The translations under genes were made by a program, and so were the position numbers. A DNA stretch of 64,000 bases from an uncultured Saprospiraceae bacterium (lineage in GTDB: Bacteria; Bacteroidota; Bacteroidia; Chitinophagales; Saprospiraceae). The stretch spans positions 30,826 through 94,825 of the forward strand of contig CAWINN010000006.1 of assembly GCA_963837505.1 (NCBI GenBank), written 5' to 3'. Shown one piece after another: positions 2,463 to 15,243 of this stretch; within the stretch, counting starts at the first letter, position 1; each line of letters starts with the position of its first letter. The notes beneath the pieces were generated by a model, which worked only from the letters and a program-made list of their open reading frames with translations, made no database searches and was not told where the DNA came from.

Positions 2463-3044
2463 CTATTTCCTCCTTTTAAACCCCGCCGCTTCTTCTTTGG
2501 TATTGATACTTTTTAATATCTGAACATCGTGAGGTTTCACCCGCTTACCATTGCAATTGAGGAGTATCCGATTCACTGACGTCTGGCCGGCCTCAAATGC
2601 TTTCAACATTACCGGATAAATGGCGGGTTCAAAAATAGTGAGCAGGGGCTCCGGAAACAGCGTCTCGGGATCGACATAAAATGTAGCTTCTCGCTTTTCA
2701 TCCCGATTAGTAAGTAAAATGGAAAGCGTTTCCGCATCAACAAATGGCAAGTCGCAGGCAATGACCCACCAGGCACAAGCAGCATCATGTTTAAAAGCAG
2801 ACAGGATACCGGCGAGCGGTCCGATGTCCTGGTATTGATCTTCGATCCTGGGAAGGCCATAGTCATACGACTGATCTGCCCTGCAGGAGATGTACACCTC
2901 CTCTACAAACGGCTGAAGCAGGTGATCGAGGTATTGATACTGCGGCATGCCATGGTAATCCAGCAATGCCTTATCCTCCCCCATCCTGGAACTTAACCCC
3001 CCGGCGAGGATGAGACCTTTGATTGAAGTACCAGCTGATTCCAT
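2463..3044 (-). CDS. mobA: Molybdenum cofactor guanylyltransferase (MobA-like NTP transferase)
   Basis: N-terminal LILAGGLSSRMGEDKALLDYHG and later GPLAGILSAF...WVIACDLPFV match the MobA signature motifs. Length 193 aa is typical. Confidence 0.8.
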   Translation of the reverse strand: MESAGTSIKGLILAGGLSSRMGEDKALLDYHGMPQYQYLDHLLQPFVEEVYISCRADQSYDYGLPRIEDQYQDIGPLAGILSAFKHDAACAWWVIACDLPFVDAETLSILLTNRDEKREATFYVDPETLFPEPLLTIFEPAIYPVMLKAFEAGQTSVNRILLNCNGKRVKPHDVQILKSINTKEEAAGFKRRK

Positions 3045-3115: not shown

Positions 3116-3445
3116 TATCCAATATATTTTGATATTCACGAAAACTCACGACTCATGCTTCGACCTGCTTATGCTCAACCTTGTGCTACAGCTCAGCAAC
3201 CGCGATTCATGAAAACTCACTACTCACGATTCACGATTCACGATTCACGGAAACTCACGATTCACGACTGACGATTCACGGAGACTCACGACTCACGATT
3301 CACGATGACGATTCACATCGGATCACGACAACTCACGACTCACGACTCACCACGCCCACTCACGACTCCACTACGTCACGACTCACTGCTCACGACTCAC
3401 GACTCACTACTCACACTCACTACTCACCACTCACCACTCAAAAAC
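3116..3445. repeat. Heptanucleotide tandem array (CACGATT/CACGACT)n containing one copy of the conserved ~50-nt element (3154-3204, reverse orientation)
   Basis: Direct reading. The array is the reverse complement of the (AATCGTG)n arrays at 51.8-52.5 kb. It generates the artefactual HDSRLTIHDSR ORFs. Confidence 0.9.
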
Positions 3446-3480
3446 TCTTTTTATCTTCCTCCCAACAAAACAATCCAGCT

Positions 3481-3912
3481 ATGCCTACACGTGTACTTGC
3501 TTTCGTTTTATTCCTCGGCCTTCAGCTCTTTCCAATATCCCCTTCCACCGCTCAGTCCTTTAATGGCCATTGGCAAGGCCTGAGCGAGGGAGAAGTCGGC
3601 AAGATGACCTTTGACAAAAAAGGATATGTCACTTTCATTATCAATGATCAGCCCATGGGTGGAAAAAAATTCACCTCCGAAGGAATAGACATGACCATGC
3701 GCTACGAATATGATGACCACGTGACGCCTCATACCATCGATTTCGTCCTGTCCATGGCCGGCGATGGTACTGAATTGACCCGCATGCTCGGGATCTACCA
3801 ATTTGTCAATGCAAAGACACTGATCATCAACATGGATTTCGAGGGAAAAGCCCGTCCCACTGTTTTTGACCCGGAGGATAAGAACCAGATCCAACTGTCA
3901 AAAATTAAATGA
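3481..3912 (+). CDS. Secreted lipocalin-like / TIGR03067-like small beta-barrel protein
   Basis: In-frame ATG at 3481 gives the signal peptide MPTRVLAFVLFLGLQLFPISPSTAQ. The upstream 100 codons of the listed ORF are repeat-derived. The mature part, FNGHWQG...KMTFDKKGYVTF..., is lipocalin-like. Confidence 0.7.
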   Translation: MPTRVLAFVLFLGLQLFPISPSTAQSFNGHWQGLSEGEVGKMTFDKKGYVTFIINDQPMGGKKFTSEGIDMTMRYEYDDHVTPHTIDFVLSMAGDGTELTRMLGIYQFVNAKTLIINMDFEGKARPTVFDPEDKNQIQLSKIK

Positions 3913-4068: not shown

Positions 4069-5106
4069 TTAAGCCATCTTTATCCCTTGCTCCCTGTAAT
4101 AATCAGCAAGCTGTCGGACCTTTCCTTCAAACTGCTGCACAAACCAATCATCATAATAGGCTAAGTGGAAACTGGCTAAATCCGGTTGTTGCAGGCAGGA
4201 TATAATCGTGTTACCAGCTATGATACCGGACCATAGCGCATTAAAAATCCCCTGGCCGGCAGCGGGATCTAATATGCCCGCAGCATCACCACAAAGCACA
4301 ATACCTTCGCTGCATACCGGGCGATACATTCGCCATCGCATATTAGCTACCTCCACCTTTCCTACGGAGACCCAGTCTTTTATTTCCTCAGGAGGCAGAA
4401 AGGTTCTCTCCCCTTTTAAACTCAATCTTGTCCATGCACAATAATCTGGCGGCTGCGGAGCTAACCACGTCCAACCCTGTTGACCCGGAATAAAATGAGC
4501 CGCATTTTGATCAAAAGGAAATGGCTCAACCCATTTTGAAATGCCGGTCCAACACACTAAGGGAGGTGAGAAAAATTGCCTCTTCCATTTTAATTTCTTT
4601 CCCGCTATGGCTTTGTTTCCCGAGGCATCAATGATGTACTTCGCATACCATTCTTGCGATCCGGTTTTTATCCCCACCACTTTTTCCTTCTCCAGAATAA
4701 AATCTTCCACCTTTTCATTAAACAGGACCGAGACTCCTGATTTTTGAATACGATGCAGTAATTGCCAATTAAATATTTCCCGATTAATATGCCTGCCTTC
4801 CCATATTCCATTTTCATCCTGTCCCAGCGGTGCATACGTGTGGCCCGTATAAATGCCGGCATACGTGGATAACGTAGCTGCTTCCTCTGCACCGGCAGCC
4901 CCTATTTTTAGAAGAAGGGAAGAAACACCGGGATGAATACTTTCCAGTGGCGCCGGAGTGGAAACTGTCCATTCACTTTGTTCAGTCTCCGGCGTAACGA
5001 TCATGACTTTCAGGCCGTTCCTGGCACAGGTAGCTGCAGCAGCACAGCCGGCAGGACCGGATCCAATAACGATAACATCCGAGACCGGCAATCCAGCATT
5101 CGTCAT
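4069..5106 (-). CDS. FAD-dependent oxidoreductase (halogenase/geranylgeranyl-reductase-like fold); candidate LodB-like flavoprotein
   Basis: N-terminal dinucleotide-binding motif VIVIGSGPAGCAAAATCARNG. Second FAD motif CGDAAGILDPAAGQGI. It lies immediately downstream, on the same strand, of the 888-aa gene. Confidence 0.75.
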   Translation of the reverse strand: MTNAGLPVSDVIVIGSGPAGCAAAATCARNGLKVMIVTPETEQSEWTVSTPAPLESIHPGVSSLLLKIGAAGAEEAATLSTYAGIYTGHTYAPLGQDENGIWEGRHINREIFNWQLLHRIQKSGVSVLFNEKVEDFILEKEKVVGIKTGSQEWYAKYIIDASGNKAIAGKKLKWKRQFFSPPLVCWTGISKWVEPFPFDQNAAHFIPGQQGWTWLAPQPPDYCAWTRLSLKGERTFLPPEEIKDWVSVGKVEVANMRWRMYRPVCSEGIVLCGDAAGILDPAAGQGIFNALWSGIIAGNTIISCLQQPDLASFHLAYYDDWFVQQFEGKVRQLADYYREQGIKMA

Positions 5107-5136
5107 TGGTCATTCGTCATTCGTCAAAAAGTAATG

Positions 5137-5231
5137 CCGCTAATTATCGCCAATTAGAATTCAATTATTTGTGATCCAAGATCCTGATCAATTGAAGCGC
5201 TGCTAATTTCCGCTAATTATCGCCAATTAGA
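5137..5231. promoter_or_regulatory. Two copies of a 22-nt direct repeat, each containing the dyad CTAATT-N6-AATTAG (candidate operator pair)
   Basis: CCGCTAATTATCGCCAATTAGA occurs at 5137-5158 and again at 5210-5231, 73 nt apart. Both lie in the 162-nt spacer upstream of the flavoprotein gene start (5106). Confidence 0.45.
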
Positions 5232-5268
5232 TTTCAGTTGTCTTCGGACCGTGGTCTGCGGTCCCCTT

Positions 5269-7935
5269 TCACGAAACCATCTTCCAGTCCGCTTTACCTG
5301 ATTTGACGGTAGCTATAGCGAGATGCGGGGAGCCCCCCGGATTATCGACCACCTGGCAGACATACATTTTCGTACAATCTACTCTTCGCCGACCAAATCC
5401 ATCCCAGGTTACCTCTTTACCATTGACATCCACGATGACATACAGGTATCCTTTGCCGGAAACTTTAGCATTGGATTTATCTGTAACCCAACTGGTATCC
5501 ATTCCCACCAGGTTTTTCGGAATTCCCCAACCAACTGCATTTTCTTTTCCAAAATGGACCGGTTCTGCACTGATCAGCCACCACCGGGTCAGGCCTACGA
5601 TTTTGTCCGCATGCTGATATCCTTTAAAATTTATTTTAGGCAGATAATCAATACACTTTTTTAGACACGCCATCCGGGCGATCAGCTCAGCACTGGTGAG
5701 TGTCCTTAATTTTGACATATCGAGATTACCATCCAATGCATTTTGCACCACATCCGCCCGACCCATATCTGCAAAATTGATCTGCCATTTGCCATCATTA
5801 TATTCCAGGAAAGGCCCCTGCACACCATCCCATCCAAAAGTCTCCACATTCAATGCCAATCCGGCAGGGGAATGTTTATGAAACCCAATTTCATCATCTA
5901 ATAAAGGAATGGAGGTTGGATTTCTACTGTATGGATCCAGGGAGCCCTGATAAGTTCTCGCCGCATCCGGTGAAGAGGCCGGCCACATACCGGCGCTGGC
6001 TGCGCACAACTTCATGTCCTCCACAAATGGCGAACCCAATCCTTCCGTACTTAAATACACCTCAGTACTTCCCGGTTTATCTGCCGAATAAGTTATATCC
6101 CATCCTGGCGCGAATACCGAAGAAGCCACATCAGGTAAAAAACCGGAAACCATATACCCTTTCGGCAATGCGGGGTTATTAAAGTGACCGTTTTGCGCGG
6201 CCGGCATCGCTGTCTTTGACTTATAACTCAGGACAGCAGTATACGTATCATTGCAGGCATGATCCATTTGCACCGTCCACTTGGGGTTGGGTGTCAATCT
6301 CGCTGTGGCGAGACTCGCGACTCCACCCTCATAAAAATTACTCTGCCCCTTGGCTGAACCTGGTGCCACATCGAATTCGATCAAATCAAAATTATCCACC
6401 TGCGGAAAAAAATCAGGTGCCGTCACGATGGAAAAGGCAGGCAAACAATCTTTGTAGAGTCCTTTAAGTGACGCTGCATGATCAAGCGTGATCTGAGCCA
6501 TGACCTTTCCGTCGCAAATGCTGTCTTCAAATAACGGCGCCTGAAACATACCGTCATTCAGGCGCTGCTCAAATCCGGCATCTTTAGTAACTTCTGTATA
6601 CCCGGCGGCGATGAGGGTATCCTGCTGATGCGTGATATTCAAAAACAAAGGCTGCGTTCTGGGTTCCGTGTATTCATTCGGAATTTTCTGGTAATTGTTT
6701 TTGCCTTTTACTTTGACCAACAATTCCACATCCTGCACATCCTGGGTATTAAAGCTGGTGAAATACCTGTTTTTTGAATACCCATCTTTACCCGGTATCA
6801 TGGCCGGCACTAAAAAATAGAGTGCTTTATTTCCTTCTTTCGCCAGCCGTATCAATTCTTTAGGTTGCGAAACCACCAGAAAAGAAGCATTGACATGCGT
6901 CGCGGCTGCATCCTGGACAATCAAATAAGAGGAGTCCCGAACTGTGGGCTTGAGATCTTTATAAAATTTAAGATCCGTATGTTCGGCAAGCTTGGCTAAT
7001 TTTTCACTCCTGTGCATTTCATGAAAATCCAGTTGAGCTTCACCGAAGAGCAGATCATGGTGGAACACTTTTCGGATCGGTTGTAAAAATGTCCGCAGAT
7101 TATCTTCTTTATCATCAAACTTATCTCCGGGTTTGTAAATACCTGTCGTCATCAAATCAATTTCACTGGATTTAACCCGCTTGGCAATGAAGAGACCATA
7201 CCGGGCAGGAACCACCGCGACCTTCTGAATAGGTATGCCATCCTTTGGCTGATTCGTGAAGCATCGGTTGATGTGATCATAATTATATTCATACTGACCG
7301 ACCCGGGCAACCCCTGTCCTGGAATACACCAAATCTGCATGTTGATGATGAGGCGTCTTAAAGGCAGGACGATATTCGTATGCAAAAACCGCCAGAATCA
7401 AATCGTCGTTGGATTTGACTTCATAGATCGACTTCAGATGTTCCCATTCGGCTAAGGCATAAATATAGTTTTCCAGGATATCCATTTGTTCCAACGAAGG
7501 ATACGCAGTAAAACCAGTTGACCGCACCCTGGGACTGGCCAGGGCGTGATACAATAAACTGAATGCAGGAAAGCCTGGTTTGATTAAATTCATTCCAGCG
7601 AAATCATCAAAACCCGATTGCGGATTATCGGTTAGTTTCTTTAGGCTGTTGGAATCAAGATCTTTTAGTAATTCGGTCTGAAGGGCTTCCCCGGTCAGCG
7701 CTAAATTGACGCCCAAAGCGTCTTTGAGATAAGCGGCCCAACCATTTTTAGAAAGCCATTGCATCAGCGACATGAATTCCTTTTGCACCTCTTCACTTAC
7801 TTTGGCAATATTCCCCTCATTATTTTCAAGGAATGCAAACAAGTTTATCCTGCTTCTGCCGCTGGAAAAGGTCGAACTTAATGGTCCCAGCAATGTTGCT
7901 ATAGCGCCCAGCTTAATGAACTCTTTACGATTCAT
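5269..7935 (-). CDS. Large hypothetical protein, candidate LodA/GoxA-like CTQ quinoprotein oxidase
   Basis: 888-aa uninterrupted ORF. N-terminus MNRKEFIKLGAIATLLG resembles a degenerate Tat signal. Contains EDMKLC (D640-x3-C644) and a Trp 58 residues later. The operon layout with the downstream flavoprotein matches lodAB. Confidence 0.85.
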   Translation of the reverse strand: MNRKEFIKLGAIATLLGPLSSTFSSGRSRINLFAFLENNEGNIAKVSEEVQKEFMSLMQWLSKNGWAAYLKDALGVNLALTGEALQTELLKDLDSNSLKKLTDNPQSGFDDFAGMNLIKPGFPAFSLLYHALASPRVRSTGFTAYPSLEQMDILENYIYALAEWEHLKSIYEVKSNDDLILAVFAYEYRPAFKTPHHQHADLVYSRTGVARVGQYEYNYDHINRCFTNQPKDGIPIQKVAVVPARYGLFIAKRVKSSEIDLMTTGIYKPGDKFDDKEDNLRTFLQPIRKVFHHDLLFGEAQLDFHEMHRSEKLAKLAEHTDLKFYKDLKPTVRDSSYLIVQDAAATHVNASFLVVSQPKELIRLAKEGNKALYFLVPAMIPGKDGYSKNRYFTSFNTQDVQDVELLVKVKGKNNYQKIPNEYTEPRTQPLFLNITHQQDTLIAAGYTEVTKDAGFEQRLNDGMFQAPLFEDSICDGKVMAQITLDHAASLKGLYKDCLPAFSIVTAPDFFPQVDNFDLIEFDVAPGSAKGQSNFYEGGVASLATARLTPNPKWTVQMDHACNDTYTAVLSYKSKTAMPAAQNGHFNNPALPKGYMVSGFLPDVASSVFAPGWDITYSADKPGSTEVYLSTEGLGSPFVEDMKLCAASAGMWPASSPDAARTYQGSLDPYSRNPTSIPLLDDEIGFHKHSPAGLALNVETFGWDGVQGPFLEYNDGKWQINFADMGRADVVQNALDGNLDMSKLRTLTSAELIARMACLKKCIDYLPKINFKGYQHADKIVGLTRWWLISAEPVHFGKENAVGWGIPKNLVGMDTSWVTDKSNAKVSGKGYLYVIVDVNGKEVTWDGFGRRRVDCTKMYVCQVVDNPGGSPHLAIATVKSGKADWKMVS

Positions 7936-8247: not shown

Positions 8248-9159
8248 ATGAATCGTTCTTATTTAAGTATTGTCGCTATGGCAATTCTTTTATTGTCTTC
8301 CTGCGTCAGTAAGAAGAAATTTACCGCCGTGCAATCTGAGCTTTCCGCCTGCAACGAAAAACTCGGCAAGTGTGATGCCGATCTGAAGGACTGCATGTCC
8401 AAGTTACAATCCTGTGAAACTGATCGCAGTTCAGCGAAAACTGAATTGAACAACCTGAAGGCCTCCAATCAAAGCCAAATGGATGATCTGAAGTCTCAGC
8501 TGGCCGATTGTAAATCACAACGGGATAAAATGCTGACACAAGTCGGTGATCTTGCCGTCATGTCACAGTCCTCCACCAAAAATATGGAGATGACGCTGTC
8601 TCAACTTGCTGAGAAAGACAAATACATACACCTGCTCCAGGCTGCCAAGACAAAAGCAGACAGTCTCAATCTCGCATTAGCTGTCAATCTGAAGAGCCAG
8701 CTGAAAGATGGTATTGAAGACCAGGACATCGATATTAAAATTGACAAGACGGTGGTGATGATTAATCTCTCCGACAAGATGTTGTTCCATTCCGGAAGCT
8801 CCAACCTGACTTCTAAAGCTAATGATGTACTGGCTAAAATTGCCCAAATCGTGAAGTCCAAACCAGACTTACAGGTGATGGTGGAAGGCTATACGGACAA
8901 TGTGCCCATTCATACGGATTGTATCAAGGACAACTGGGATCTCAGTGTTCACCGCGCTACTGCCGTTGTAAGGGTTATGCAAGGGAAATACAATATCAAT
9001 CCAGATCAGTTGATCGCCGCCGGCCGCGGAGAATACAACACGCTGACCTCGAACGATACTGCTGACGGTCGTGCTACTAACCGCCGGACCCGCATTATCA
9101 TCATGCCAAAACTGGATCAGTTCTATGATCTGCTGAACCCGGCTACTGCTCCGAAATAG
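8248..9159 (+). CDS. OmpA-family lipoprotein with N-terminal coiled coil
   Basis: Lipobox LLLSSC. The central region is heptad-rich and Cys-containing. C-terminal OmpA_C motifs: VMVEGYTDNVPI, NWDLSVHRA, GRATNRRTRIIIMP. Confidence 0.85.
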   Translation: MNRSYLSIVAMAILLLSSCVSKKKFTAVQSELSACNEKLGKCDADLKDCMSKLQSCETDRSSAKTELNNLKASNQSQMDDLKSQLADCKSQRDKMLTQVGDLAVMSQSSTKNMEMTLSQLAEKDKYIHLLQAAKTKADSLNLALAVNLKSQLKDGIEDQDIDIKIDKTVVMINLSDKMLFHSGSSNLTSKANDVLAKIAQIVKSKPDLQVMVEGYTDNVPIHTDCIKDNWDLSVHRATAVVRVMQGKYNINPDQLIAAGRGEYNTLTSNDTADGRATNRRTRIIIMPKLDQFYDLLNPATAPK

Positions 9160-12387: not shown

Positions 12388-15243
12388 ATGTCTATGAAAC
12401 GATTGATTTCCATCCCTTGCCTTTGTCTTGCCCTGATTCATCTGTGTAACGCCCAGATGATCACTCATAAAAAGGAACACCTTTTTCATCATCCTGTGAC
12501 CCGTTCCAGATCTGTCCAAAGTTTTATTTATTCCCTGTCCACTTCCACCGATACCTACACGGACCTGACCGGCGCCATTTCGCTGAACAATGGAGAGATC
12601 TGGGATGATCCCACCTACATCATGCCCATGGCTTTTCCTTTTGAGATCAATGGCAATCCCATTACACAGCTTGAGTTTTACGGAGGTGGTTCATTAATGC
12701 GAGCGCCAACTTCGGATCCGGATTTTTATAATTATCTCTTTTCTTTTGAAGTCGATCTGATTGACAGGGGAGCGAATGGCACCACATCGCTTTCACCAAT
12801 CAGCTACAAGGTGGAAGGTACACCCGGAAATCGCATTCAAAAAGTCGAGTTTAAGAATGCCGGTTCGTATTCTGAAATGGATCAAGAGGGAACATTGAAT
12901 ATGTATGTCAATTTCCAGATGTGGCTGTATGAAGGCAGCCATAAAATCGAATATCATTATGGGCCTAGTTTTATAAATGATCCGGCATTATTTTACGATG
13001 ATGGAGGAGGACCAGGAGTTGGCGTTGCCGATTATGATGAAACAAATGACATCATTAGCAATCCCCATTTTATTATCGGATCCGCCTCCAACCCATTCCT
13101 GTCCGCCAATCCAATCCTGCTGACCGGTACGCCCGCAGAAGGAATGGTGTACAGCCTGACCGTGATCACTCCACTGGAAATCACCCTGGCGAGTGAAAAT
13201 GCGGATTCCTATTGCAGTCCCAATGGCACAGCCTCGGTCACTGCCAGCGGTGGCACTGAGCCCTACACTTACTTTTGGGACAATGGAGAAACTACGCCTG
13301 CCATCATCCATCTTGATGCAGGAACCTACAGTGTTACAGTCACCGATGCTGATGGGTCTTTTTTGACCGGTGCTGTCACTATATCCAATGTGGAGGCGAT
13401 GACGTTGATGGTCACCGGTACAGATGAAACGAGTGCAGGCGCCAATGATGGCATGGCCGAAGTCCAGGCTTCTGGTGGATTATCTCCTTATACCTATTTC
13501 TGGAACACCGGAGAAACGACCAACCTGATCGAAAATTTAGCTCCCGGTATTTACTCCGTTACGGTAACGGATGCCAGCGTCTGCACTGAACAACAAAGTA
13601 TATCCATCAACGCATTTGATTGTCCGGACTTAACCCTGGAAGTCGGCATTACCAACATCAGTTGCTTTGGAGATTGTAACGGCAGTATCAATATATTGCA
13701 AATCGGGCAAGGAACAGCGCCATTCAGCTTCTTGTGGAGCCAGGGAAGTATAACGCCGGTCATCCAGAATCTTTGTTCCGGTGATTACGCTGTCACGGTG
13801 ATTGATGCTAATGGTTGCATAGTCCTCGGCAATTATGTCATCTCTCAACCTGAAGAACTCATTCCAAATGCAGGCTCCACGAATGAAAGTCTGTTAAATC
13901 AACATGACGGCACAGCCTGGGCCGCTCCTTCAGGCGGGACGCCTCCGTATAGCTATGAGTGGAGTACAACCAGCACGGACTCCCTGATTACCGGCCTGAT
14001 GCCGGGTACCTACACGGTCACCGTAACGGACGATAATTCCTGTAGTTCAACGCAATCGGTTACCATAGCTGCGGGACCATGTGGAATACTGACTGATCAA
14101 ATTGTGGGGGTTACTTGCAATGGAAGTTGTGATGGCGCAATTGTTCTGAATTTCCCGAATGGGGAGTCCCCCATACTTTATATCTGGAATACAGGAGACA
14201 CTACTTCCCTGATTTCAAATCTGTGTGCGGGTGATTATAGCGTTACAGCTACAGACAATACAGGTTGTATGGTTTCCGGCAATTATACCCTGCAGGAACC
14301 TTCCGCTTTGGAGACCAATGGCGGAAGTTCAGATGAGACCATGAATCTGAATGACGGCACCGCCTGGGTTGCACCGACGGGGGGCACACCGCCCTATGCT
14401 TATCACTGGGATAATGGCAGTACAGATTCCCTGATTATCAATCTTTCTCCCGGCGAATACGTGGTCAGTGTTTCAGATGCGAATGGATGTGTAGCTGGCG
14501 AAAGTATAGTCGTAAATGCCTATACCTGTCTGCCTGGAATGCTATTCGGGAATACCCCTATAACTTGCTATGGCAACTGTGATGGCTCTGTCAGTTTGTC
14601 CATCATTGGAGGGACTGGTCCTTTCACCTATAGCTGGAGCAACGGTGATACGACGAATATGATCAACCATCTATGCGTTGGAACTTACGAAATAACGGTA
14701 ACGGATGTCGGGCAGAACTGTGTTTCCTCTTCTTCATTTGAACTGGAACAACCGGATTCACTATATGCGGTTGTGGATGAAGTGGTGAATCTGACAGACA
14801 GCACATCCTCTGCGATTAACCTTACGGCCTTTGGAGGAACACCCCCATATGAATATCAATGGATGGGAACCAATGGATTTTCAAGCACCCAGGAAGACCT
14901 GAGTGGAATACCGGAAGGGACTTACTCGGTTGTGGTTTTGGATGCTAACGGATGCCAGAGCGGAATCGATTCCATTCAAATCCTCGATCTGACGGTTGGG
15001 CTCTCTCCTGTTCCTGAATGGGGCCTGTCTTTATTTCCAAATCCGGCACAGGATAAGGTTTTTATCAATGGACTCCACTTCAATGAATATCAAATTCAGT
15101 TAATGACCACGGACGGTCAGCCACGGAAGCTTTGGAAAAATATGTCTGCCCTCGATGTGCATGATGTGGTACCGGGTATGTATATACTTAAATTTATTTC
15201 TGGTAAAAATTCATTGGTTAAACCGCTGCTCATTGTGCGATAA
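12388..15243 (+). CDS. SprB-repeat secreted protein with T9SS C-terminal sorting domain
   Basis: Signal peptide. About 8 repeats of the pattern C.G.CDGS....GGT.PY.Y.W..G.T...I..L..G.Y.VTVTD.NGC. C-terminal LFPNPAQDKVFI...GMYILKF tail. Confidence 0.85.
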   Translation: MSMKRLISIPCLCLALIHLCNAQMITHKKEHLFHHPVTRSRSVQSFIYSLSTSTDTYTDLTGAISLNNGEIWDDPTYIMPMAFPFEINGNPITQLEFYGGGSLMRAPTSDPDFYNYLFSFEVDLIDRGANGTTSLSPISYKVEGTPGNRIQKVEFKNAGSYSEMDQEGTLNMYVNFQMWLYEGSHKIEYHYGPSFINDPALFYDDGGGPGVGVADYDETNDIISNPHFIIGSASNPFLSANPILLTGTPAEGMVYSLTVITPLEITLASENADSYCSPNGTASVTASGGTEPYTYFWDNGETTPAIIHLDAGTYSVTVTDADGSFLTGAVTISNVEAMTLMVTGTDETSAGANDGMAEVQASGGLSPYTYFWNTGETTNLIENLAPGIYSVTVTDASVCTEQQSISINAFDCPDLTLEVGITNISCFGDCNGSINILQIGQGTAPFSFLWSQGSITPVIQNLCSGDYAVTVIDANGCIVLGNYVISQPEELIPNAGSTNESLLNQHDGTAWAAPSGGTPPYSYEWSTTSTDSLITGLMPGTYTVTVTDDNSCSSTQSVTIAAGPCGILTDQIVGVTCNGSCDGAIVLNFPNGESPILYIWNTGDTTSLISNLCAGDYSVTATDNTGCMVSGNYTLQEPSALETNGGSSDETMNLNDGTAWVAPTGGTPPYAYHWDNGSTDSLIINLSPGEYVVSVSDANGCVAGESIVVNAYTCLPGMLFGNTPITCYGNCDGSVSLSIIGGTGPFTYSWSNGDTTNMINHLCVGTYEITVTDVGQNCVSSSSFELEQPDSLYAVVDEVVNLTDSTSSAINLTAFGGTPPYEYQWMGTNGFSSTQEDLSGIPEGTYSVVVLDANGCQSGIDSIQILDLTVGLSPVPEWGLSLFPNPAQDKVFINGLHFNEYQIQLMTTDGQPRKLWKNMSALDVHDVVPGMYILKFISGKNSLVKPLLIVR

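Follow-up and report, generated by a model that had tools for sequence, protein, structure and literature searches.

A two-gene cassette encoding a remote LodA/GoxA homolog and a flavoprotein in an uncultured Saprospiraceae bacterium: a putative tryptophylquinone-type oxidase and its maturase

The stretch of DNA analyzed in this work, hereafter the window, comprises 64,000 nucleotides (nt) from an uncultured Saprospiraceae bacterium (assembly GCA_963837505.1, contig CAWINN010000006.1, positions 30,826 to 94,825 of the forward strand) and carries two adjacent genes that encode an 888-amino-acid (aa) protein and a 345-aa flavoprotein. We propose that these genes form a self-contained enzyme-plus-maturase cassette, in which the large protein represents a sister family of tryptophylquinone-type oxidases and the flavoprotein is its dedicated maturase, and we put the probability of this reading at about 0.55. 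Only three types of enzyme are known to use cysteine tryptophylquinone (CTQ): quinohemoprotein amine dehydrogenase (QHNDH), LodA, and GoxA (Chem Soc Rev 2025, PMC11951088). A preliminary description of the window had already compared the gene pair to lodA and lodB. As a functional hypothesis this analogy is a good one, resting on robust remote homology, nearly universal linkage to a flavoprotein gene, a plausible Asp-x3-Cys cofactor motif, and a twin-arginine translocation (Tat)-type signal. The two genes are as follows.

5269..7935, minus strand: large gene, encoding an 888-aa LodA/GoxA-related protein, a putative protein-derived-quinone oxidase.
4069..5106, minus strand: flavoprotein gene, encoding a 345-aa protein dependent on flavin adenine dinucleotide (FAD), a putative cofactor maturase related to QhpG, GoxB, and LodB.

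The list of open reading frames (ORFs) in the window places the two genes 162 nt apart and agrees with the initial observation that an 888-aa ORF is followed on the same strand by a 345-aa GxGxxG flavoprotein. Both genes that flank the pair, one of the OmpA family (8248-9159) and the other an ORF at 3181-3912, lie on the opposite strand, so the unit in the window consists of just these two genes. Both proteins are nameless in the NCBI and ENA records. The neighbors of the pair are OmpA-like and MobA-like genes and otherwise unrelated ORFs, and the GC content of the window is unremarkable.

Linkage of the two genes is conserved far beyond the window. A scan of species-representative genomes identified 79 loci in at least six phyla, 71 of which had enough flanking DNA for linkage to be judged. 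At 68 of the 71, the large gene has as its immediate same-strand neighbor a gene for a homolog of the window flavoprotein (E = 1e-159 to 8e-15). This gene usually lies downstream, abutting or overlapping the large gene by a few bases, and lies upstream in three cases (two Pseudomonas and a Spirosoma). The linked loci belong to Bacteroidota, Pseudomonadota, Myxococcota, Acidobacteriota, Verrucomicrobiota, Cyanobacteria, and Binatia. Three contexts unrelated to one another (Mucilaginibacter, Pinibacter, and a Chitinophagaceae metagenome-assembled genome [MAG]) agree in having a gene for a flavoprotein of ~340 aa directly after the large gene and differ in all other neighbors, and clustering of flanking ORFs across the 79 loci revealed no other universal neighbor. 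The lodA-lodB-like layout, an oxidase-like gene with a flavoprotein gene, is therefore conserved as a pair, and homologs separated from a flavoprotein gene are clearly not the rule.

The preliminary description had framed the protein as a family member in a Bacteroidota host, and in this respect the scope has to be widened. The Bacteroidota loci are from Saprospiraceae, Chitinophagaceae, Mucilaginibacter, Pedobacter, Flavobacterium, Sphingobacterium, Roseivirga, Lewinella, and Spirosoma; Pseudomonadota are represented by Pseudomonas frederiksbergensis, P. migulae, Massilia, Duganella, Brevundimonas, Methylocapsa, and Kangiella, and Myxococcota by Archangium and Polyangiaceae. Further loci are found in Acidobacteriota, Verrucomicrobiota, Cyanobacteria (Nostoc and Prochloraceae), and Binatia. 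A word-seeded search recovered 494 relatives of the large protein, and an exhaustive HMMER scan (E ≤ 1e-3) resolved the superfamily into 627 clusters at 50% identity. The closest relatives, at 75 to 88% identity, come from Saprospiraceae and "Candidatus Opimibacter" MAGs, which marks the host as a Bacteroidota member of the Saprospiraceae type. The family has two forms: a long form of at least 850 aa, mostly from Bacteroidota, and a short form of 600 to 849 aa, mostly from other phyla.

Profile comparisons identify the 888-aa protein as a true, if remote, homolog of LodA/GoxA, an assignment that is robust at the level of sequence statistics. The comparison set consisted of eight genes annotated "LodA/GoxA family CTQ-dependent oxidase," taken with their partners from plasmid records, and 120 further proteins found by profile search, for a total of 128. 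When a profile of 34 members of the window family was searched against the whole PDB, the sole matches were GoxA chains, at an E value of about 0.1; the shared motif reads FEDSICDGKV-A...AFSIVTAPDFFPQ in the family and WFDDICDGRVTA...AWVATTPPDYAPQ in GoxA. A 60-aa GoxA fragment used as the seed of a homolog search gave a single match, the 103-aa protein P0252, and because this protein carries PF17990 (LodA_N), the shared motif lies in LodA_N. Alignment of 234 family sequences with the 128 LodA-family sequences by hhalign gave a P value of 4.7e-5 (probability, 68%) over 426 columns, spanning residues 202-760 of the query and 48-590 of GoxA at ~10% identity. The score of 52.05 compares with 17.2 ± 2.7 (maximum, 25.0) in 40 shuffles of the query-profile columns (z ~13), and a second hhalign run with small profiles returned the same motif (P = 4.9e-4). 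Conserved columns that pair in the N-terminal part include G208/R211/G213 with G54/R57/G59 of GoxA (the IGxARxG motif), D471/G476 with D241/G246, and P507/P511 with P272/P276. The two families are also connected by single-profile searches: a LodA hidden Markov model (HMM) matches the family member P0184 at 5.5e-9, P0184 matches the window protein at an E value of 2e-79, and the family HMM matches all 128 LodA proteins. The corresponding features of the window are the following.

6292..7332, minus strand: residues 202-548, region homologous to the LodA N-terminal domain, from hhalign column pairs.
6397..6537, minus strand: residues 467-513, FEDSICDGKVMA...PAFSIVTAPDFFPQVD, the best-conserved shared motif, to be compared with W-x-DD-x-x-DG-x-V-x-A...A-W-V-V-x-P-P-x-Y-A-P of LodA_N.

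Structure prediction points in the same direction, although the fold match is weak. A full-length AlphaFold2 (AF2) model had a predicted template modeling score (pTM) of 0.86 and a mean predicted local distance difference test score (pLDDT) of 80.5, with residues 647-664 weakly modeled (pLDDT < 50), and a core model of residues 175-800 built from a deeper alignment reached a pTM of 0.94 and a pLDDT of 92.1. In Foldseek searches of the PDB, LodA chains were the sole matches to the full-length model below an E value of 1 (E = 0.007 to 0.010). For the core model, six LodA/GoxA chains matched at E values of 0.008 to 0.046, and the next match followed at 0.52. As the sole low-E fold matches, LodA/GoxA are uniquely the nearest solved family.

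The C-terminal half of the large protein contains the residues from which a protein-derived cofactor might be formed, and the following features are relevant to it.

5812..6138, minus strand: residues 600-708, candidate cofactor region, LPD-x-x-S-x-x-FAPGWD...GLGSPF-x-E-D640-M-K-L-C644-AA...M-W651-P-A-S-S-P656-D657...E-I-G-F-H686...G-W702-D-G.
6004..6018, minus strand: D640-M-K-L-C644, putative equivalent of D512...C516 in LodA and D678...C682 in PlGoxA.
5983..5985, minus strand: W651 (C644+7), aligned with W557, the invariant Trp of FWPAxxP in the LodA family; a second candidate for the quinone Trp, on the model of QhpC.
5830..5832, minus strand: W702 (C644+58) in an invariant G-W-D-G, candidate quinone Trp by LodA-like spacing.

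D640, C644, and W702 lie at the codons originally given for them: residue n starts at position 7935 - 3(n - 1), which places C644 at 6004-6006 and W702 at 5830-5832, and the translation reads SPFVE-D640-M-K-L-C644-AAS and TFG-W702-DG. The CTQ residues of LodA are C516 and W581 (PMC4417212), as given in the preliminary description, and the D-x3-C context is seen in the PDB sequences. LodA D512 and C516 correspond to D538 and C542 of the Martelella protein. In PlGoxA, whose numbering we derived from sequence variants in the PDB, the segment reads P-W675-Q-S-D678-A-A-S-C682. D678N and D678A variants are present there, and Asp678 is the conserved cofactor-site Asp (PMC7876137). The conserved C-terminal elements of the LodA family are F-H-P-G-C-E, P-W-Q-x-D-x-x-x-C, F-W-P-A-R-V-P, and a later invariant Trp (W594 in Martelella) located 44 to 73 residues past the Cys (C+65 for W581 of LodA). 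The window family has its motifs in the same order, namely, F608-A-P-G-W-D613, P636-F-x-E-D640-M-K-L-C644, M-W651-P-A-S-S-P656-D, and G-W702-D-G.

In an hhalign comparison of the C-terminal halves, this chain of motifs was the best path, pairing FAPGWD with FHPGCE, P636/D640/C644 with P534/D538/C542, and W651-P-A-x-x-P656 with W557-P-A-x-x-P562. Its score of 23.2 was reached by none of 150 shuffles (14.0 ± 2.6; maximum, 21.7), and the path contains 10 identical and 3 similar column pairs that are each at least 90% conserved in both families. By this path, D640-x3-C644 can be aligned to the cofactor Asp and Cys of the LodA family and is their putative counterpart. The candidate residues are conserved to a degree well above chance expectation and are nearly invariant among 233 superfamily members: D640, C644, and W651 are each kept in 232 of 233, W612 in 233 of 234, and W702 in 229 of 231. 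C644 is the sole near-invariant Cys of the family, D657 and D703 are invariant, and D640, C644, and W702 are invariant in all 78 intact genome copies, so that both residues of the originally proposed Cys-Trp pair are conserved in homologs. In both AF2 models, residues 637-646 lie within one helix, which would place D640 and C644 (i, i+4) on the same side. The proposal that W702 is the LodA-like CTQ Trp stands as far as conservation and spacing are concerned; it does not stand as a unique choice, as W702 falls off the LodA CTQ Trp column and W651 is equally conserved. We therefore treat both W702 and W651 as candidates for the quinone Trp.

The flavoprotein has the affinities expected of a cofactor maturase, although its nearest model is not LodB. 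It matches general FAD-binding Pfam families, and its N terminus (MTNAGLPVSDVIVIGSGPAGC) contains G15-x-G17-x-x-G20. G273-D274 and D280-P281 are conserved among partner flavoproteins as well, and two segments stand out.

5047..5064, minus strand: GxGxxG dinucleotide-binding motif, G15-S-G17-P-A-G20; G15, G17, and G20 are kept in at least 65 of 67 partners.
4459..4476, minus strand: G211-W-T-W-L-A216, WxWxIP-like; near-invariant in partner flavoproteins and absent from seven LodB/GoxB-type partners.

Among the NCBIfam models, QhpG ranks first (2.2e-30, full length), followed by the geranylgeranyl-reductase superfamily, CmlS, GoxB (1e-16), and LodB (7e-14). For 10 diverse partners from six phyla, QhpG was the top model in 9, and GoxB or LodB, usually both, matched in all 10, below the cut-off. 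As a control, the partners of bona fide LodA-family genes match the same five models more strongly, with 107 to 244 bits on LodB/GoxB and 136 to 190 bits on QhpG; these scores too are below cut-off, except for a true GoxB at 466. Matches to the same five models with weaker scores indicate that the partner is a more divergent branch of the same group. Calling the flavoprotein LodB-like is therefore correct in that curated CTQ maturases are its nearest relatives and inexact in that it is closer to QhpG and below all three cut-offs.

The localization of the two proteins is also consistent with a cassette of this kind. The long forms of the large protein have M-x-R-[RK]-[DE]-F-[LIV]-[KR] at the N terminus and a hydrophobic stretch after it; the strict RR motif is present in 84 of 148 and a loose motif in 142 of 148, and in the family alignment (consensus MxRRxFL) R3 and F6 of the signal are invariant. 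The 888-aa protein has the N terminus MNRKEFIKLGAIATLLG, and its motif, NRKEF, matches the family pattern M-x-R-[RK]-[DE]-F. What had been described as a degenerate Tat signal thus proves to be the R-K version of a Tat-type signal shared across the family.

7846..7935, minus strand: Tat-type signal, residues 1-30 (MNRKEFIKLGAIATLLGPL...), R-K variant of the consensus M-x-R-R-x-F-L.

One relative is named [quoted passage not shown] and another matches PF10518 (TAT_signal). The short forms lack the first ~50 to 100 residues, and a Tat-type signal is found in 5 of 82. The flavoprotein has no signal peptide. A signal-less flavoprotein together with a Tat-type signal on the large protein fits a scheme in which maturation would occur in the cytoplasm before export.

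A second type of neighbor bears on the predicted product of the enzyme. The recurrent-neighbor clusters obtained from the flanking ORFs were mostly antisense shadow ORFs, and an animal-type heme peroxidase (PF03098, 1.4e-21) was the only real one. It directly adjoins short-form members at no fewer than six loci in four phyla. The loci from three Archangium genomes, a Rhodospirillales MAG, and a cyanobacterium have it directly upstream in the same orientation, and a Pyrinomonadaceae locus without a flavoprotein gene has it directly downstream.

Heme peroxidase neighbors: locus L075, 6503-8233 (flavoprotein absent, peroxidase in the downstream slot); locus L064, 2284-3879; and loci L066, L073, L084, and L089.

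LodA-family proteins are known as catalase fusions (PMC4417212). In our set, one LodA-family entry (L012) is annotated "catalase," and another LodA-family gene has a Dyp peroxidase upstream. The peroxidase neighbors parallel these associations and support, without proving, the production of H2O2; for the predicted antimicrobial activity, too, their support is indirect. The adjacent peroxidase may serve to remove H2O2 or may itself be an alternative maturase.

Several results weigh against the proposed reading. The 888-aa protein matches no family in Pfam or NCBIfam (E ≤ 0.1), and a phmmer search of PDB sequences returned no meaningful match, although LodA and GoxA are in the PDB. The check on LodA_N and LodA_C suggested in the preliminary description came out negative for the window protein and 44 relatives: neither PF17990 nor PF18417 (LodA_C) matches any of the 34 aligned relatives (E ≤ 10) or of the 10 more distant ones (E ≤ 1), and the only clear Pfam domains in these 44 proteins are fusions, Ferritin-like in P0177 and Laminin_G_3 in P0181. 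Both LodA profiles are present in 120 of 120 bona fide LodA/GoxA proteins, and the protein and its relatives are therefore outside the curated LodA/GoxA family. The original label of a divergent LodA family member is thus right about the remote homology, whereas by every curated definition the family is a separate one. Superposition on LodA (3WEU) and GoxA (6BYW) likewise gave a divided answer: these chains are the only fold matches with E < 0.05, yet the folds do not superpose globally, with TM-scores of 0.10 to 0.22 and a root mean square deviation above 14 Å even for the model with a pLDDT of 92. In the candidate cofactor region, the C-terminal alignment has a P value of only 0.015, and the full-length hhalign path takes a different course at residues 600-660, where it pairs six identical and one similar conserved column and leaves C644 unpaired with the CTQ Cys. 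Past WPAxxP, in a segment whose alignment is nonsignificant, the LodA CTQ Trp column falls on P673-T674 and not on a Trp. A profile of the cofactor segment found neither LodA/GoxA nor the QHNDH gamma chain in the PDB at E ≤ 10. The flavoprotein scores 105.9 bits against a cut-off of 240 for QhpG (NF049967), 60.9 against 400 for GoxB (NF038174), and 51.7 against 400 for LodB (NF038171), which is below the partners of ordinary LodA-family proteins, and it carries the halogenase-like GWxWxA missing from LodB/GoxB-type partners. Lastly, the three loci without an adjacent flavoprotein gene retain all candidate residues; the idea that these residues are lost where the flavoprotein is absent was tried and refuted.

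Some of these results would be explained if the flavoprotein did modify the large protein but the product were not LodA-type CTQ. The product might be a QhpC-like local site, where an unmodified Trp on a flexible loop would be hydroxylated twice, directly and in the manner of QhpG; it might also be a Trp-Trp quinone resembling tryptophan tryptophylquinone (TTQ) or another Cys/Trp modification. The enzyme might then be a dehydrogenase whose electrons go to an acceptor in the periplasm, and not an H2O2-forming oxidase. QhpG, rather than LodB or GoxB, is indeed the best model for the flavoprotein family. In QhpC, the gamma-subunit of QHNDH, CTQ is formed from C37 and W43 with D33 nearby (PMC7876137), so that D33-x3-C37-x5-W43 can be set beside D640-x3-C644-x6-W651, in which all three residues are near-invariant and the last lies in the loop (647-664) that was weakly modeled at full length. 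The family has no Trp at the LodA CTQ Trp column, and W612, W651, and W702 are all near-invariant. PF08992 (QH-AmDH_gamma) matches 4 of 34 family members, but these matches are weak (best E = 0.018), and the cofactor-segment profile misses the QHNDH gamma chains. Furthermore, W651 pairs with W557 of FWPAxxP, which is not the quinone Trp in the LodA family; genes for the radical S-adenosylmethionine (SAM) enzyme QhpD, a heme subunit, and a small gamma-subunit are not nearby; and the heme peroxidase neighbors favor H2O2 production. On balance we consider a non-LodA product rather unlikely.

More sceptical explanations separate the two proteins or the two halves of the homology. If the genes were coupled without being enzyme and maturase, the flavoprotein would be a small-molecule monooxygenase or halogenase and the large protein an ordinary enzyme or binding protein whose conserved Cys, Asp, and Trp are catalytic or structural and carry no cross-link. 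The top PDB matches of the flavoprotein are flavin-dependent halogenases (PltA, 3e-13), with QhpG (7ctq) matching over the full length at 6e-9; the near-invariant GWxWxA of the flavoprotein resembles the WxWxIP motif; every maturase model scores below cut-off; and the large protein resembles LodA and GoxA only weakly in fold. However, K67 of the window flavoprotein, which from the PltA alignment we take to be the position of the essential halogenase Lys, is Q, K, R, or H across 67 partners, and the halogenase reading is disfavored because this position is unconserved. QhpG is itself structurally closest to the halogenase CmlS (PMC7876137), so halogenase-like matches are expected for CTQ maturases. 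The flavoprotein also differs from halogenases of the PltA, CmlS, and CndH type in its size (345 aa), in lacking a C-terminal substrate domain, and in having no biosynthetic gene cluster around the cassette. A two-gene cassette with no other shared pathway genes in six or more phyla is poorly explained by a small-molecule pathway, whose steps would moreover be split between compartments by a Tat-type signal on one protein and a cytoplasmic location of the other, and the LodA/GoxA homology is statistically robust. We regard this explanation as improbable. Still less probable, in our estimation, is that the likeness to LodA/GoxA reflects an ancient N-terminal beta-rich domain only, with a coincidental C-terminal motif match and an unrelated function. 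HMM-versus-sequence methods are significant for the N-terminal hairpin motif alone, and the modest C-terminal P value, the nonsignificant segment past WPAxxP, and the low TM-scores would fit. Against this, none of the 150 shuffles scores as high as the C-terminal alignment, whose matched columns run collinearly and set conserved positions against conserved ones, Asp and Cys included, and coincidence leaves unexplained why a flavoprotein partner of the same type has been kept.

What the analysis shows directly is that the gene pair exists and is conserved and linked, that the large protein is remotely homologous to LodA/GoxA, how well the candidate residues are conserved, where the affinities of the flavoprotein lie, and that a Tat-type signal is present; quinone formation, the Trp used, oxidase activity, H2O2 release, and the substrate are what we infer. 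In the enzyme-plus-maturase reading, the 888-aa protein would be made in the cytoplasm as an inactive precursor. A cytoplasmic FAD protein of the peptidyl-tryptophan-modifying QhpG/GoxB/LodB group would then oxygenate one invariant Trp, W702 or W651, which would be cross-linked to C644, with D640 one helical turn away as the cofactor-site Asp, to give a CTQ-type quinone. The Bacteroidota proteins would then leave by the Tat pathway, folded and with the cofactor in place, and the exported enzyme would oxidize a primary amine or amino acid, pass the electrons to O2, and release H2O2. From sequence and predicted structure, we judge the formation of a protein-derived Cys/Trp quinone to be slightly favored. 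A bolder version makes the family a third, hitherto unrecognized kind of tryptophylquinone enzyme, combining a LodA-like scaffold, a QhpC-like site (D640-x3-C644-x6-W651) or a C644-W702 pairing, QhpG-like direct hydroxylation of an unmodified Trp, and Tat export, with a heme peroxidase that in some lineages might assist the flavoprotein or take its place; this version is tentative and on the unlikely side.

Set against LodA/GoxA, the cassette is alike in having a flavoprotein gene immediately downstream, in its remote but significant profile-profile homology, in the N-terminal motifs IGxARxG and DDxxDGxVxA...PPxYAP, in a candidate C-terminal chain (F-x-P-G-x-[DE], P-[WF]-x-x-D-x-x-x-C, and W-P-A-x-x-P), in a Tat motif such as that of GoxA group II (PMC4417212), and in its association with H2O2-removing enzymes. 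In contrast to LodA/GoxA, the window protein has no PF17990, PF18417, or NCBIfam LodA/GoxA match, is only ~10% identical, and has an extra N-terminal helical domain of ~170 aa and a C-terminal beta domain of ~100 aa; the spacers between the C-terminal motifs of its family are much shorter, the CTQ Trp column holds no Trp, and the partner is closer to QhpG and carries GWxWxA. With QHNDH (QhpC, QhpG; PDB 1JMX, 7CTQ), the cassette shares QhpG as the best curated model over the full length, a local D-x3-C-x6-W, and a periplasmic mature enzyme, the last predicted from the Tat-type signal. Unlike QHNDH, it has no small gamma-subunit, radical-SAM QhpD, protease QhpE, or diheme subunit: the 888-aa protein contains no CxxCH, and QhpC, QhpD, and diheme QhpA genes are not among the window neighbors. 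In addition, the Trp and Cys lie within an 888-aa protein and not in a thioether-cross-linked peptide of ~80 aa, and the flavoprotein is ~80 residues shorter than the QhpG model, scoring 106 bits against the cut-off of 240. Methylamine dehydrogenase, matured by MauG, is similar in concept, with a tryptophylquinone (TTQ) made by a dedicated enzyme before or around export and a conserved Asp near the cofactor; however, MauG is a diheme enzyme and not a flavoprotein, there is no sequence relationship, and the neighboring peroxidase in relatives is animal-type, not MauG.

The DNA between the two genes in the window has features of its own.

5107..5268, minus strand: intergenic gap of 162 nt, containing CTAATTGGCGATAATTAG twice and, where the flavoprotein gene starts, a run of GACGAAT heptamers.

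The palindrome-containing 18-mer CTAATTGGCGATAATTAG occurs in exact copies at 5140-5157 and 5213-5230 (two copies were seen in 0 of 100 shuffles), and the heptamer run abuts the start codon of the flavoprotein gene. The 18-mer was found nowhere else in the window and in none of the intergenic gaps of relatives, and the gap itself is unconserved, since the two genes usually abut or overlap in relatives. The repeat is therefore outside the system, and its candidacy as an operator was rejected. The same gap in Saprospiraceae relatives contains other short tandem repeats (GTGAGAGC, CAGTGGT, and AAAATCC; L025, 6646-7000, and L027, 6661-7000), so that repeat-rich intergenic DNA looks like a habit of this lineage, with the genes of other lineages abutting or overlapping.

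Some loci and relatives show peculiarities of their own. In Mucilaginibacter sp. cycad4, the large gene is preceded on its own strand, at a distance of 25 bp, by a 230-aa ORF with no Pfam match (L001, 7284-7976), which could represent a third component peculiar to this lineage. In two Saprospiraceae loci (L038, 3980-8498, and L035, 3377-6187), the best large-gene ORF is partial and the flavoprotein ORF starts 820 to 2198 nt beyond it; these large genes may be pseudogenes or assembly errors. The relative P0177 (1291 aa) is an N-terminal Ferritin-like (PF12902) fusion, and P0181 is a Laminin_G_3 fusion. On a Hymenobacter plasmid (L007, 1913-3004), a gene for a ferritin-like protein adjoins a LodA/GoxA-family gene, so that the same association occurs in both families.

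Elsewhere in the window, the plus-strand ORF at 3181-3912 opens with low-complexity HDSRLT-type repeats, which are probably translated tandem DNA repeats; its likely true start and signal peptide (MPTRVLAFVLFLGLQLF...) are further inside, and it has no Pfam match. This ORF lies between the cassette and a gene at 2463-3044 (minus strand) for a MobA-like molybdenum-cofactor guanylyltransferase (PF12804, 1e-32), which is unlinked to the cassette in other genomes. By eye, the C termini encoded at 166-903, 940-1695, and 12388-15243 (plus strand) resemble sorting domains (Por) of the type IX secretion system, and a 951-aa ORF among these neighbors has many repeated Cys-containing modules of ~90 aa each. 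Such neighbors fit a Bacteroidota host with a rich secretome.

As far as sequence comparison can tell, the window protein is part of a large sister family of ~630 clusters, nameless and without a model in Pfam or NCBIfam. When the LodA-like proteins were surveyed in 2015, the family was delimited by BLAST-level similarity (PMC4417212), an approach that would have missed the window family, and the literature that we searched on tryptophylquinone enzymes, their maturases, and LodA in Bacteroidetes or with Tat signals covers known systems alone, with no paper on this family. The family is common in soil and water Bacteroidota and also occurs in Pseudomonas, Massilia, Archangium, Nostoc, and others. 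In immediate practical terms, these results offer a lead for annotating thousands of "hypothetical protein" entries. If the family does carry a quinone, it would widen the known distribution and sequence space of tryptophylquinone enzymes and would provide new oxidases of amines or amino acids that are of interest to biotechnology and ecology, for example in H2O2-mediated competition and in biosensors, along with a natural experiment on how QhpG-type and LodB-type maturases recognize their protein substrates. Were it indeed a third type of tryptophylquinone enzyme, its ~630 clusters in at least six phyla would be undiscovered quinoproteins.

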